A DNA stretch of 30,435 bases, from the NCBI GenBank assembly GCA_020060525.1, contig JAGUZZ010000299.1, positions 1 to 30,435 of the forward strand, given 5' to 3'. Positions 11,253-21,268 of this stretch are shown one piece after another. How positions within the stretch are numbered: the first letter of the stretch is position 1; every line of letters starts with the position of its first letter. The stretch is from a bacterium. GTDB taxonomy: Bacteria > Krumholzibacteriota > Krumholzibacteriia > Krumholzibacteriales > Krumholzibacteriaceae. The translations under genes and the position numbers were made by a program. Below the pieces are notes generated by a model. That model searched no databases. It was not told the DNA's origin and worked only from the letters and a program-made list of their open reading frames with translations.

Positions 11253-12383
11253 TCAGTATTCCTGCAGCACCTTTTCCCACTCGCGCGCGAGAGAGACCTT
11301 CTTCGAGACGAGCTCGACGATCTGGGGGTTCGCGGTCTTTTCCTTGAGCTCTTCCCATTCTGCGATCGCCTTGGCCACTTCCCCCATCCGCGCGTGCAGG
11401 TAGCCCTTGATGAACATCGCTTTCTGGTTCTCGGGGTTGAGCAGACGGGCCTTCGAGAGGTACATGAGCGCCTCGCTCAGCCGGTCCGTCTTGTAGCAGA
11501 TCTCGCCGAGCATTCGGAGCGCCTCGAAACACTCGGGGTCGAGCGCGAGCGCTTTTTCGAATTGCGCCGCGGCCCCCTCGAGATTGAGACGGCCGTAGCT
11601 TTCGCGTCCCGCCTTGAGAAGATCCTCCAGGCGGGCCTCCTTCTCGGGTCCCGGAGATCCGGCGGCCGATCCGCCGCCTGCGAGCTCGATGACGCCCATG
11701 ACGACGAGACCGTATATGAGCTTGCTCGTCGTGAACAGATCTCCGCCGACGGCGTCGTTCACTTCCTTGACGGAGCGTTTGCCGTCGATCAGCGCGAGGA
11801 TCTCCCATTCGCGCGGCTTGAGATTGAGCTGCTGGCCCTGGCGCGAATCGGAGCTCAGATTGAACACGCTGTGGCGCGAGGGAACCTTGTTCCCTATGTT
11901 CGACCATTCGTCGATCCGGCGCGCGCCCTCGAGGATGAGATTCTCCGTATTGAGCGGGACGAGGATTTCGCGCCTCTCGTCGATCTCCTCCTCGATGAAA
12001 CGGCATTCGCCGCGATCCCACTTGAATATCTCGTAGACGTTCTCGCGAACGCAGTTCGCGATGAAATTCTCCATGTGGCCGCGCGAGGCGATCCCCTCCC
12101 CCTCGAGGCATTCGACGAGGGTCGGGTACTTGCGCCGGTTCTTCTCGATGCGGCCGAGCGACGCCTCGTCCACGACGCCCCATTCGACGAGCAGCGCTTC
12201 GATCCCCTTCGGCACGCGGTCGTGGATGACGGCGAAGCTCGTGTCGCCGTTCGCGAAGACGATCTGCGCCTCCTTGCCCTCGGGACCGTCCGTGACCATG
12301 AGGCGCCCGGTCTTCTTGTTGATGTGCAGCACCTGGAAGAGATCGAAGAGCCCGAGATCCTTTATCGACGATTGAATGGTCAT
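11253..12383 (-). CDS. DUF4388 (PATAN-like) domain protein with winged-helix-like middle region and C-terminal TPRs
   Basis: N-terminal IQSSIKDLGLFDLFQVLHINKKTGRL...IFANG fits DUF4388. ENLILEGARRIDEW and LKPREWEILALIDGKRSVKEV follow, then TPR-like helices. ATGA overlap with the upstream TPR gene. Confidence 0.82.
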   Translation of the reverse strand: MTIQSSIKDLGLFDLFQVLHINKKTGRLMVTDGPEGKEAQIVFANGDTSFAVIHDRVPKGIEALLVEWGVVDEASLGRIEKNRRKYPTLVECLEGEGIASRGHMENFIANCVRENVYEIFKWDRGECRFIEEEIDERREILVPLNTENLILEGARRIDEWSNIGNKVPSRHSVFNLSSDSRQGQQLNLKPREWEILALIDGKRSVKEVNDAVGGDLFTTSKLIYGLVVMGVIELAGGGSAAGSPGPEKEARLEDLLKAGRESYGRLNLEGAAAQFEKALALDPECFEALRMLGEICYKTDRLSEALMYLSKARLLNPENQKAMFIKGYLHARMGEVAKAIAEWEELKEKTANPQIVELVSKKVSLAREWEKVLQEY

Positions 12384-14185
12384 ATCGAGCCGTCCTCTAC
12401 CGGCGTTATCTCGGTCAGGGCCTCCAGAACGTCGTCCGCATCCTCGCCGCCTGCGGAAGCATCCGGCGTCCGCGCCCCAGGTGCGGACGCTTTCGGAGCG
12501 CTCCTTTCGCGCAGCCGCTCTTTTCCCTTCTCGACGACCGAGACGAGATAGTCCTTGATTTTGTCGAAGCGCCGGGCGAGACCGCTCTGGAGAAGCTCGA
12601 TGAGGTCGTCGTCCGGCTCGAGCGCCGTTCCGGCGTCGATCGCGGGCGGCGCGGCGCGATGCATCGGATCGAGCGCGAGGAAAAAGGCGAATCCGGTGTA
12701 GCGCGGGTTGATCTTCGACGCATCGAGCACGGCCTGGATGGCGCCCTGGAAATCCTCCTCCCGGAGACAGCAGAGCGCCTTGAGGTAGAGCGCGTCGCTG
12801 TGGTTCTTGTCGAGCGCGAGCGCGCTCTCGATGTCGAAGAGAGCGAGCGTCAGCCGGTTCATCTTGTAGTTCAGGATCGCGTGCTTCTCGTAGAGGAGCG
12901 GGCTCTTCCCCATGAAGGCCTCGAACCGCTGGATGAGGTTCTCCGCCATGGGGTACTCTTCCTTGAGGAAGTGGCAGTTGAGGAAATTGTAATTGAGCTC
13001 GAGGTGGTAGAGCTTCAGGTTGAGCCCCTTCTTGAACATGCGCTCCGCCTCTTCACGCAGCCCCACCTGAAACAGGAGCACGCCGAGGTTGTTCATCGTG
13101 TCGGCGTCGGCGGAGTTGAGCCGGAACGACTGGAGGTAGCAGAGCGCCGCCCCGCTCAGATCTCCCTGAAGGTGGTACACGGCTCCGAGATACCGGTAGG
13201 CCTCGGCGTTCTCGGCGTTCGCCTCGAGCGTCTTGAGGAACGCCTCGGCGGCGTTGTCGTAGTTCCCCGCCGCCGCGTGTATCTTGCCGATCTCGACGTG
13301 GACGCGATCCGCGTCCGGCATGTCCCCGAGCGCTTTCTGGAACTCCTTGAGCGCCTCCTTGAGGAATCCTCGCTCCCGGTAGGCCATGCCGAGCGTAAAA
13401 CTCGTGCTCTCGAGGCTCGCGACCTCCTTGCCGCCGGCGAGAACGGCCTCCATCGCCCCGCCCCTCGCGTAGTTCGAGAGGGTGAGATTGGCCTCCGTGT
13501 TCTGGAACGACGGATTGAGGCGGGAGGCCACGCGGCTCTCCTCGAGCGCCTCCTGGAGCTGTCCGTTGTCGCCGTACGCGAACGACAGGAGGAAGTGCGA
13601 CCGCCAATAATCGGCGTCGAGCTTTATCGCCTCGTTGAGCTCCGCGATCGCCTCGTCGGTCCGGCCGAGATTGTAGTACACCTCGCCGAGATCCGTATGG
13701 AACACCGCCGATTTCGCGAATCCGGCGCTGATCGCCCGATAGTGCTCGAGGCTTTGCTGGTAGAGCCCCTGCGCCTTCAGCGCGGTGGCGAGGTGAAAAC
13801 GAGCCATCGTGTGGCCGGGGTTGCGCTCGACCACGGCGCCGAGGATCTCGGACGCCTCGCGGCAACGCCCCATGTTCTGATAGCTCACGCCGAGCCGAAG
13901 CAGCGCCTCGTAGTTCTCCGGATCCCGCCGGACTTCGTCGCGCCACCGCTTCACGTCGGGATCCTCGAGTCCCGTCTCCGCGAACAGGTACCGGATGTTC
14001 TCGCGGGCAAGGTCGAACTTGGGATCGACCTTGAGCGCTTCCTTGAACTGCTCCATCGCCTCCGCGAACATCCCCTTCCGGAAGTAGAGGACGCCGAGGT
14101 TGTTGAGAGCCCCGGGGTCGCTCCGCTCCACGCGCGAGGCGAAGCTGAGGAGCACGCTGCGTTCCTGTTCGGTCAGCTCCGGCAT
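12380..14185 (-). CDS. Multi-TPR repeat protein (601 aa)
   Basis: Repeated 34-aa TPR patterns (ALNNLGVLYFRKG, FHTDLGEVYYNLG, TMNNLGVLLFQVG) and an acidic low-complexity C-terminal tail. Confidence 0.9.
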   Translation of the reverse strand: MPELTEQERSVLLSFASRVERSDPGALNNLGVLYFRKGMFAEAMEQFKEALKVDPKFDLARENIRYLFAETGLEDPDVKRWRDEVRRDPENYEALLRLGVSYQNMGRCREASEILGAVVERNPGHTMARFHLATALKAQGLYQQSLEHYRAISAGFAKSAVFHTDLGEVYYNLGRTDEAIAELNEAIKLDADYWRSHFLLSFAYGDNGQLQEALEESRVASRLNPSFQNTEANLTLSNYARGGAMEAVLAGGKEVASLESTSFTLGMAYRERGFLKEALKEFQKALGDMPDADRVHVEIGKIHAAAGNYDNAAEAFLKTLEANAENAEAYRYLGAVYHLQGDLSGAALCYLQSFRLNSADADTMNNLGVLLFQVGLREEAERMFKKGLNLKLYHLELNYNFLNCHFLKEEYPMAENLIQRFEAFMGKSPLLYEKHAILNYKMNRLTLALFDIESALALDKNHSDALYLKALCCLREEDFQGAIQAVLDASKINPRYTGFAFFLALDPMHRAAPPAIDAGTALEPDDDLIELLQSGLARRFDKIKDYLVSVVEKGKERLRERSAPKASAPGARTPDASAGGEDADDVLEALTEITPVEDGSI

Positions 14186-14208
14186 GTCCTGGTCCTTTCA
14201 GCGAGTCG

Positions 14209-14586
14209 TTACGCGGCCGGCACCTGGCTCGTGACCTTCGCGATCACTTCGACGACGCGCGCGGCGTTGAACGGCTTGATGAGAAAATCCTTCGCGCCCG
14301 CCGTGATCGCCTCCTGCACGAGGGCCTGCTGGCCGAGCGCGCTGCACATGACGATCCGCGCCTGCGCGTCGTGCTCGAGGATCTTGCGGACCGCGTCGAT
14401 GCCGTTCATCTCCGGCATGATGATGTCCATGGTCACGAGATCCGGGCGAAGCTCCTTGTACCGCTCGATGGCCTTGGCGCCCGTGTCCGCCTCGCCGGCG
14501 ATCTCCATGCCGTTCTCGACGAGGATGTCCGAGATCATCTTCCGCATGAATATCGCGTCGTCAACGATGAGTACCCTCAGTTTCAC
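14209..14586 (-). CDS. cheY: Chemotaxis response regulator CheY
   Basis: Single receiver domain with IVDD, TMDIIMPEMNG (phospho-Asp), MCSALGQ and IKPF. GTG start after AAAGGAG. Confidence 0.93.
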   Translation of the reverse strand: MKLRVLIVDDAIFMRKMISDILVENGMEIAGEADTGAKAIERYKELRPDLVTMDIIMPEMNGIDAVRKILEHDAQARIVMCSALGQQALVQEAITAGAKDFLIKPFNAARVVEVIAKVTSQVPAA

Positions 14587-20267: not shown

Positions 20268-21115
20268 CGTATCCCTCCCGTGGGAAGAGCGGAGCATTTC
20301 TTCGCATATATCTTGTTTCGCGGATCGGCGAGCTGGAAGAGCGACCCGGCGGCTCCGGTGATCGCCTCGGTCTTGCCGAGGACGAGCACGCCCCCGGGCC
20401 CGAGCGCGCCGTGAAAGCGCTCGAGCACCTCGCCCCTGACGACGTGATCGAAGTGGATGAGAACGTTCCGGCACACGACGATGTCGAGCTCGCCGTACGG
20501 GGGAGGCTGGAAGAGATCGTGCACGGAGAAGAGAACGACGCGCCGCGCCTCGGGCGCGACTCTCGCGCCTTCAAGAACGGACTCGAAATAGCGGTCGCGA
20601 AGCGCCGCCGGGATCCGGTCCAGCTTCCGCCGGTCGTAGATCCCGCGTCGGGCGACGCGGCAGGCCTCTCTCGATATATCCGTGGCGAACACCTCGAGTC
20701 CGACGCCCGCCGGATGCGCGCGCAGGTATTCGAGGACGACGATCGCGAGGCTGTACGCCTCCTCGCCGGTCGAGCACCCCGCGCTCCAAACGCGGATCGC
20801 GCCCGCCCCCCCTCGCGCGGCGCGGGCGACTGCCGCGGGGAGAACGTCCCGCGCGACGGCCTCGAACACCTCGGCGTCGCGCATGAACTCGGTGACATGG
20901 ATCGTGACCGTGTCGAGGAGGTGATCGATCTCCTCGCGGTTCGACGAGAGATACTCGAAATATTCGGAAAGACTCTCGACGCGGAGCATCGACATCCGGA
21001 GCGATATGCGCCGCCCGAGACAGTTCAGGCGGTAGCTCGAGAGATCCTTCCCGAACTTCGCGTTGAGGCGCGCGATGAGATCGGCGAGCTCCATATCCTT
21101 TGCGACGTTCGACAT
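20264..21115 (-). CDS. cheR: Chemotaxis methyltransferase CheR
   Basis: [27 protein letters not shown] and [13 protein letters not shown] 21115 sits 7 nt after GGAG. Confidence 0.94.
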
Positions 21116-21252
21116 CGACACGCTCCGGCATTCCGCCCGCGAAACGACGGCGCCGGCCCGCGGCTCGTCGCGCGTCTGCGCGTCGGAAGCTTTGTTTCGA
21201 TGGTCCCGACCCTGCCCCCTGCCGAGCGCGGAGCAGCGTGCGGAACCGGATT

Positions 21253-21268
21253 TGCAATTGCTATACCA
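21253..21268 (-). promoter_or_regulatory. sigma54 (RpoN) -24/-12 promoter of the che operon
   Basis: Minus strand TGGTATAGCAATTGCA: exact GG-N10-GC spacing, TGG and TTGCA, about 140 nt upstream of cheR. Confidence 0.7.

Follow-up and report, generated by a model that had tools for sequence, protein, structure and literature searches.

The DNA analysed here (the window) is a stretch of 30,435 nucleotides that forms one entire contig (JAGUZZ010000299.1, GC ~65%) of a metagenome-assembled genome (MAG) of an uncultured Krumholzibacteriaceae bacterium of the phylum Krumholzibacteriota (assembly GCA_020060525.1; 2.30 Mb, 368 contigs, 81% complete). Its minus strand carries, from position 21268 to 11253, ten co-oriented genes in the order cheR-mcp-cheW-cheD-cheB-cheA-cheC-cheY-TPR-PATAN(DUF4388)-wHTH-TPR. 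The first eight encode chemosensory proteins, and the last two encode a tetratricopeptide repeat (TPR) protein and a protein in which a PATAN (DUF4388) domain is followed by a winged helix-turn-helix (wHTH)-like module and TPRs, here called PATAN-TPR. We assign a probability of about 55% to the reading that this is an F1-derived, sigma54-controlled chemosensory operon in which phosphorylated CheY (CheY-P) acts through the two terminal scaffold proteins on pili or MglA, with a non-flagellar output in this organism. Chemosensory control via PATAN and TPR adaptors is already known; what is new is the ten-gene operon form ending in a receiver-less PATAN-TPR gene. An initial annotation, made from the sequence alone, had called the system a candidate undescribed one, and we found no paper on a che operon that ends in a TPR gene and a receiver-less PATAN-TPR gene.

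Domains of the window genes were assigned by Pfam profile search and families were named with NCBIfam. All ten genes of the initial annotation were recovered, co-oriented and with the domains that had been stated for them. Six of the nine junctions overlap (cheR/mcp by 4 nt, cheW/cheD by 17, cheD/cheB by 1, cheB/cheA by 14, cheA/cheC by 38-65 and TPR/PATAN by 4), and the other three are gaps of 27 nt (mcp-cheW), 18 nt (cheC-cheY) and 23 nt (cheY-TPR). The tight packing described earlier was thus confirmed, while the number of overlaps had been put one too high, at seven. The overlap between the cheA stop and the cheC start (15185-15249) measured 38-86 nt at every locus examined (the window and 11 relatives), which is unusually long for a conserved overlap. 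An identical ten-gene order was present in 14 of 14 fetched loci, from 14 genomes of three families of the order Krumholzibacteriales, as well as in some two dozen other public contigs of sufficient length. Among 12 loci, the TPR gene always started 14-24 nt after cheY, and the distance between the TPR and PATAN-TPR genes ranged from -4 to +31 nt. The arrangement is far beyond chance. The synteny of the two terminal genes with che genes, which the initial annotation had proposed to survey, is kept across the order and in Gemmatimonadota as well.

A predicted sigma54-type promoter (21254..21268, minus strand) precedes the operon. Its -24 element TGGTAT and -12 element TTGC show the GG-N10-GC spacing, and the sequence reads TGGTAT-N5-TTGC at 21268..21254, which is 133-147 nt upstream of the cheR start. 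The motif by itself was rejected as evidence, since two-mismatch matches to the sigma54 consensus were no commoner in the window than in shuffled sequence (11 observed versus 15.6 expected). However, TGG[T/A]A[T/C]-N5-TTGC recurred at 93-176 nt before cheR in every one of the 27 distinct relatives whose upstream sequence was long enough, even where CheR was only ~40% identical. Moreover, rpoN is present in the genome (Sigma54_DBD match of 4.1e-64 on contig C94). Because of this conservation and the presence of rpoN, we accept the element as the predicted sigma54 promoter of the operon, as the initial annotation had proposed. A simple scan found no terminator after the last gene. A small public library labelled as transcriptomic RNA-Seq (run X1; 87 Mb, 2013) holds 94% of the stretch, but its depth was flat at ~13-15 on both strands and in intergenic DNA (window 8000-25000). 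It behaves like a DNA library and was set aside as transcript evidence; we therefore inferred no operon boundary, start site or transcription from it.

Based on domain content and closest family matches, the core proteins of the operon appear to be of F1 type. The marks of the F1 class are CheC, CheD and 44H receptors (PMC10746217), and all three, which the initial annotation had named as hallmarks, are indeed present. All coordinates of operon genes given here and below refer to the minus strand. The adaptation and coupling proteins comprise the receptor methyltransferase CheR (20264..21121, 285 aa; Pfam CheR 3.8e-52 and CheR_N), the coupling protein CheW (18354..18857, 167 aa; Pfam CheW 4.3e-34), the receptor deamidase and CheC partner CheD (17858..18370, 170 aa; Pfam CheD 1.1e-28) and CheB (16767..17858, 363 aa from an ATG that overlaps the cheD stop), in which Pfam Response_reg and CheB_methylest matches identify a receiver (REC) and a methylesterase domain.

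The receptor, a methyl-accepting chemotaxis protein (MCP) of 460 aa (18885..20267; Pfam HAMP and MCPsignal), accounts for the only MCPsignal match in its own assembly. It belongs to class 44H, with a hairpin-tip Glu at position 294 and two arms of ~154 residues each, which reach back to the HAMP end and forward to GRFAV. Two transmembrane segments (residues 10-32 and 69-91) flank a loop of ~35 aa and are followed by the HAMP domain. Only in this genus is the periplasmic part (window 20060-20170, residues about 33-68) as short as about 35-47 aa. Its counterpart in eight genomes from other genera of the order (e.g. L037:10875-12569 and L043:3564-5222) is a poorly conserved domain of ~130 aa without a Pfam match. 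The short loop is thus a genus-specific deletion in which roughly 95 residues of sensor were lost. The near absence of a sensory domain, listed earlier among the unusual features of the system, therefore holds for this receptor but is no hallmark of the system, and the likeness to the Dif pathway of Myxococcus xanthus that had been drawn from it is weak. In Dif a CheC homologue accompanies a receptor that has almost no periplasmic domain, and the pathway is not known to include CheR, CheB, CheD or TPR or PATAN genes. Compared by gene content, the two systems share the near-absent periplasmic receptor domain (in this genus only) and the CheC homologue, whereas the present operon has CheR, CheB, CheD, TPR and PATAN genes. 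Nothing ties the operon specifically to Dif.

The histidine kinase CheA (15185..16780, 531 aa) has the domain order P1-P3-P4-P5 (Pfam Hpt at 5-97, H-kinase_dim at 140-195, HATPase_c and CheW) and, as claimed initially, lacks P2. Its linker between the Hpt and dimerisation domains is Ala/Pro-rich and spans just 43 residues. Pfam gave no P2 match in the window protein or in the CheA proteins of four further genera, while the same P2 model does find this domain in the flagellar-type CheA of relatives and in one Gemmatimonadales CheA. CheC, a CheY-P phosphatase (14605..15249, 214 aa from a GTG at 15249 or 205 aa from an ATG at 15222), matches Pfam CheC in two stretches (7.2e-22). Its site 2, S-x3-E-x2-N-x22-P, is intact, and its site 1 retains E..N with the closing P replaced by T. 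CheY (14209..14586, 125 aa; Pfam Response_reg) is a single-domain response regulator that aligns with Thermotoga maritima CheY (1TMY/4IGA) at 62% identity, ungapped, with an E-value of 3e-46. The best NCBIfam matches of CheA, CheC and CheY are all haloarchaeal or Thermotogales proteins: for CheC the Thermotogales CheC, and for CheA a haloarchaeal CheA at 417 bits, which is below the family cut-off.

The operon nevertheless differs from the F1 systems of T. maritima, Bacillus subtilis and archaea. It shares with them CheC, CheD, the 44H receptor and a Thermotoga-like CheY, but no flagellar genes were found in this genome or its genus, CheA is without P2, only one receptor is encoded, the operon includes two additional scaffold genes and the promoter is of sigma54 type. 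Flagellar motor control, the F-class trait, was not evident here from FliM or FlhA, in MAGs of which the best is 96% complete in 5 contigs. The type IV pilus (Tfp, or Pil-Chp) class does not fit either, as CheA has one Hpt domain and, according to Pfam, no REC domain, and no pil genes are present in the window. The classes for alternative cellular functions (ACF; Wsp, Dif, Frz and Che3 types) have outputs other than motility and often CheA-REC hybrids and 40H receptors; the CheA found here has no REC domain and the receptor is 44H.

The two terminal genes set the operon apart. The first encodes a TPR protein of 601 aa (12380..14185) that matches TPR families only in Pfam and is 56-83% identical across the order. 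In its AlphaFold2 (AF2) model (mean predicted local distance difference test score, pLDDT, 71.5) it is all-helical, with two arrays of ~7 TPR-like repeats each (6-223 and 261-492) and a variable, disordered and acidic C-terminal tail. The second, whose start overlaps the stop of the TPR gene (ATGA), encodes the PATAN-TPR protein of 376 aa (11253..12383; Pfam DUF4388 2e-22 and TPR). It scored 80 bits against PF14332, with a cut-off of 25, and thus counts as a PATAN domain protein. No Response_reg match was obtained with Pfam and its C-terminus consists of TPRs, unlike that of PatA-type regulators. The AF2 model (pLDDT 87) predicts a beta core (3-54 and 126-131) with a helical insertion (61-120), an invariant helix (146-164), a wHTH-like module (173-234), a short linker and about four TPRs (246-375). 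The protein is 57-99% identical at full length within the three families of the order, and such full-length conservation was not seen in other families of the class. Neither terminal protein scored above any NCBIfam family cut-off. Comparison of the PATAN-TPR model with the PDB (Foldseek, VIA-align) and with the Swiss-Prot part of the AlphaFold database returned TPR matches, one uncharacterised Aquifex protein and no solved PATAN structure, while the closest predicted folds in the ESM Atlas were all PatA_N+TPR proteins of Gemmatimonadota. A reading of PATAN-TPR as a sensor of cyclic di-GMP (c-di-GMP) was ruled out with the strict and relaxed forms of the 24-residue MshEN motif, RLGxx(L/V/I)(L/V/I)xxG(L/V/I)(L/V/I)xxxxLxxxLxxQ (PMC5013675), and there was no MshEN Pfam match in the protein. 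A profile comparison of the PATAN insertion with the N-terminus of the organism's own PilB aligned the expected helices at 9.9% probability and was not used as evidence.

The genome contains three further DUF4388/PATAN paralogues. One, on C350, is at least 290 aa long and encoded directly 3' of a gene for a 749-aa TPR protein; another, of 173 aa on C298, adjoins a pyruvate phosphate dikinase-like gene; and the third, on C65, is cut by the contig end and located beside a REC-HisKA protein. In one congeneric genome (5 contigs, 96% complete), PATAN-TPR is found in two overlapping frames (1-252 and 248-376; G012:C3:397057-398183, i.e. L045:12001-13130), which represents a frameshift or an assembly indel.

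Next, we compared the distribution of the operon with that of flagella. Neither FliM nor FlhA was found in the genome studied here. FlhA is absent from 41 of the 52 genomes of the order and present in the other 11. No genome of the genus encodes it (0/16, among them the 96% complete genome in 5 contigs), and it is also missing from operon-bearing relatives assembled into one or two contigs. Flagellated genomes contain a second che cluster, cheW-cheR-cheA-cheD-cheB, without cheY, cheC or a receptor gene (e.g. G021:C16, L134:8445-13810, and G025:C9, L135), in which CheA is 740-860 aa long and has P2. Such a P2-bearing second CheA occurred in 10/11 FlhA-positive and 0/41 FlhA-negative genomes, the exception among the former being only 61% complete. 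Most genomes have one true MCP, that of the operon, and flagellated genomes have two to four. Since FlhA is missing from 41 of 52 genomes and the flagellated ones add a P2-CheA cluster of their own, the window-type operon, which is universal in the order, is independent of flagella. In the organism studied here, the output of the operon is not a flagellum.

The ten genes are under purifying selection within the genus that lacks FlhA, where ratios of nonsynonymous to synonymous substitution rates (dN/dS) amounted to 0.06-0.38. CheY (0.085-0.11), CheC, the MCP, PATAN-TPR (0.06-0.19) and the TPR protein (0.11-0.19) were the most constrained.

Candidate targets for a non-flagellar output are encoded in the same genome. 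The genes pilB (MshEN and T2SSE), pilT and the start of pilC lie in a row, and pilM is located elsewhere. PilB is 73-99% identical in 49 of the 52 genomes of the order, and a secretin is present in 44/52 and located ~15 kb from pilB in close relatives. On contig C235 (L128:2052-5469) we found an MglA-like GTPase of 396 aa whose C-terminal extension of ~200 aa matches nothing in Pfam; genes for a receiver protein (120 aa), an unknown protein (144 aa) and a TPR protein (384 aa) follow. This long MglA-like GTPase occurs in 51/52 genomes; canonical MglA of ~196 aa is found in nearly all relatives and is missing from the assembly studied here. The search for pilus and mgl genes that had been suggested earlier thus turned up pilB, pilT and an MglA-like gene. 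PATAN genes are sometimes encoded near mglA and mglB (PMC4316618).

We propose that the single membrane receptor, adapted by CheR, CheB and CheD, would control the P2-less CheA through CheW. CheA would phosphorylate CheY, and CheC would reset it. CheY-P would then act on two co-translated scaffolds, the ~14-repeat TPR protein and the receiver-less PATAN-wHTH-TPR protein, and these would contact the type IV pilus (T4P) motor (pilB-pilT-pilC, pilM) and/or MglA-type polarity GTPases. Binding of CheY-P to the TPR and PATAN proteins, with pili or polarity as the target, is inferred by analogy with the cyanobacterial PATAN-REC proteins and the MglA/SgmX/PilB pathway of Myxococcus, which makes the T4P motor or an MglA polarity switch most plausibly the non-flagellar target. 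The output through PATAN and TPR proteins is suggested because the Synechocystis PATAN domain binds PilB1 and the N-terminus of PilC and suffices for output (bioRxiv 10.1101/2021.06.11.447907), and because M. xanthus SgmX, a protein with 14 TPRs, recruits PilB downstream of MglA (PMC11580455). Two PATAN proteins are listed as candidate SgmX partners in the latter study, where they were not studied further (PMC11580455). Of the output envisaged in the initial annotation, by way of the TPR and DUF4388 proteins to pili, polarity or surface functions, the non-flagellar part is upheld by the lack of FliM and FlhA, while the route itself is a proposal drawn from synteny and analogy.

Both analogies have their limits. 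In the cyanobacterial Tax/Pix systems (PixG, PixE, PilG), as here, a chemosensory kinase feeds a PATAN domain and a plain CheY exists alongside; there the PATAN domain is joined to REC, whereas here its fusion partners are a wHTH-like module and TPRs, with a separate CheY as the sole receiver. Furthermore, the core here is F1-like (CheC, CheD, CheB, CheR) and not of the Tfp class, and there is no photoreceptor MCP. The M. xanthus pathway Frz-MglA/MglB-SgmX/FrzS/SopA-PilB follows the same logic, with chemosensory signals reaching the T4P extension ATPase by way of a polarity GTPase and a large TPR scaffold. The repeat number of SgmX resembles that of the operon TPR protein (~14), and the lineage studied here also has MglA-family GTPases and T4P. 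On the other hand, no orthology is detectable beyond the TPR repeats, and the Myxococcus parts are encoded at separate loci. In the Frz system FrzE is a CheA-CheY fusion, FrzCD is cytoplasmic, and CheC and CheD are not known to occur.

A related arrangement exists in a second phylum. The PATAN-TPR alignment search also retrieved more than 40 Gemmatimonadota loci with 29-35% identity at full length, and collinearity was assessed by tblastn of the window proteins against loci L082-L127. The Gemmatimonadota block reads cheY-cheA-cheC-TPR-PATAN/TPR, followed ~6 kb further on by cheR-cheD-cheB-cheW; in one Gemmatimonadales chromosome these 6 kb encode a TPR protein, a Roadblock/MglB-like protein, an MglA-like GTPase, two DnaA-like ATPases and a second PATAN-TPR protein. 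This supercluster thus has a core collinear with that of Krumholzibacteriales (CheY 60-65%, CheA 36-44% and PATAN-TPR 29-35% identical) and includes cheR, cheD, cheB and cheW as well. The Krumholzibacteriales form differs in being a compact ten-gene operon with its own receptor and without MglA, Roadblock, DnaA-like ATPase or second PATAN-TPR genes inside, the MglA-family genes being located elsewhere. In addition, its CheA lacks the P2 domain that is present in the one Gemmatimonadales CheA tested, its TPR protein has ~600 aa as compared to ~900 in Gemmatimonadota, and its PATAN insertion lacks the MshEN motif typical of the Gemmatimonadota homologues. We tentatively put forward, as a possibility to which we give clearly less than even odds, that the Krumholzibacteriales operon and the Gemmatimonadota supercluster represent an old chemosensory lineage of the Fibrobacterota-Chlorobiota-Bacteroidota (FCB) group outside the 19 recognised classes (bioRxiv 10.1101/2022.05.07.491037). 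In such a lineage an F1-type CheY would signal, instead of to a rotary motor, through a receiver-less PATAN-wHTH-TPR adaptor and an SgmX-like TPR scaffold to the T4P motor or the MglA polarity switch, and the ten-gene operon would be its minimal, self-contained form.

Several observations weigh against a pilus- or polarity-directed operon. Because T4P and MglA occur universally in the order, their presence alongside the operon singles out no target. Moreover, no pilus or mgl genes adjoin the operon here. The MshEN motif, strict or relaxed, was found in the PATAN insertion of 0/14 Krumholzibacteriota as compared to 17/21 Gemmatimonadota homologues; without an MshEN-type motif, PATAN-TPR may therefore behave unlike its Gemmatimonadota relatives. 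The genome in which FliM and FlhA were not found is only 81% complete. The initial annotation had reckoned a preserved FliM-binding surface on CheY among the findings that would speak against its claim, and the alpha4-beta5-alpha5 face is in fact Thermotoga-like: it differs hardly at all from that of the motor-binding T. maritima CheY and is invariant in genomes with and without flagella. The flagellated relatives examined yielded no second close CheY, with none in the single flagellar cluster inspected (G021) and none in the second che cluster. Since no second close CheY was found there, the operon CheY may also serve the flagellar motor in flagellated relatives.

These features of CheY are accommodated by a dual-role F1 pathway, which we regard as an unlikely alternative. 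The pathway would be ancestrally flagellar, with CheY binding FliM wherever flagella exist, while the TPR and PATAN proteins would place or assemble the receptor array or CheY at the pole; in lineages that lost flagella the pathway would persist, serving some other target. The near-identity of the CheY face to that of the T. maritima protein favours this view, as do the second che cluster of flagellated relatives, which has no cheY of its own, and the archaeal and Thermotogales F1-type proteins that are the best family matches of CheA, CheC and CheY. It is opposed by the window-type CheA, which in each of the five genera tested lacks P2, the domain on which CheY docks; the flagellar-type CheA retains it. 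Likewise, the TPR and PATAN genes are constrained as strongly as CheY in genomes without flagella, and the same core in Gemmatimonadota is accompanied by MglA and Roadblock genes and not by flagellar genes.

Rather improbable, in our view, is a different kind of output, in which PATAN-wHTH-TPR would be a CheY-controlled regulator of transcription or of the matrix (DNA, exopolysaccharide, biofilm), as in systems of the Dif, Wsp or Che3 type, and not linked directly to the pilus motor. The compact winged-helix-like module at 173-234 with its invariant motifs in the AF2 model would be consistent with this, and a sole receptor with almost no periplasmic domain suits a sensor of cell state better than a taxis receptor; the sigma54 promoter, moreover, implies conditional expression. 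However, the wHTH-like segment matches no DNA-binding family in Pfam or NCBIfam, and the published function of PATAN is binding to the pilus motor, Han et al. having judged a DNA-binding role of PatA-type proteins unlikely (bioRxiv 10.1101/2021.06.11.447907). The full adaptation set of CheR, CheB, CheD and CheC is typical of temporal-gradient sensing for motility, and the Gemmatimonadota homologues adjoin MglA and MglB. Finally, the idea that this is an ordinary flagellar F1 operon, with flagellar genes missed through gaps in the MAG and unrelated neighbours as terminal genes, could draw on the 81% completeness in 368 contigs and on the flagella of some Krumholzibacteriota, flagellar and chemotaxis genes having been noted in one MAG of the phylum (PMC10936416), but it is highly improbable and close to refuted by the absence of FlhA from all 16 genomes of the genus and from single- or two-contig carriers, by the additional dedicated che cluster of flagellated relatives, and by terminal genes that are translationally coupled or at most 31 nt apart at every locus and conserved into a second phylum.

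The rest of the window encodes CstA, GH97, EamA, an S46 peptidase, a PhzF-like protein, a GAF-PAS kinase, a beta-eliminating lyase, DUF4434 and an aldehyde dehydrogenase. Pfam detected no flagellar or pilus genes among them, and the earlier statement that none are nearby agrees with these neighbours, which are metabolic and transport genes and the one GAF-PAS kinase. Upstream of the operon are located the divergent PhzF-like gene (21368-22468, plus strand) and the gene for the soluble GAF-PAS histidine kinase (22519-24303, minus strand), and both keep their position beside the operon in all three families at 49-81% identity; the same is true of the position of the downstream S46 peptidase and EamA transporter genes. 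The adjacency of the GAF-PAS kinase and the operon may reflect a functional link or mere synteny. Elsewhere in the genome, contig C362 (L132:656-3090) encodes, in this order, a 575-aa protein with a weak CheW-like domain only, a small HTH_17 protein and a STAS protein; in relatives a weak MCP-like gene for ~660 aa is found beside such a CheW-like gene. Near-identical strains were also found in groundwater, sediment and soil metagenomes.

Rewiring of chemotaxis from flagella to pili or polarity is known from few models, namely Pil-Chp, Frz and cyanobacterial Tax. The Krumholzibacteriales offer a natural dissection of this process, as one lineage comprises species with and without flagella that have the same F1-like operon with its two scaffold genes, and the flagellated ones add a second kinase cluster. 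What is a PATAN-REC protein in cyanobacteria is here split into CheY and PATAN proteins, which turns the step from receiver to PATAN into a testable protein-protein interaction. The core that is common to Gemmatimonadota, some of which are culturable, points to a minimal gene set.

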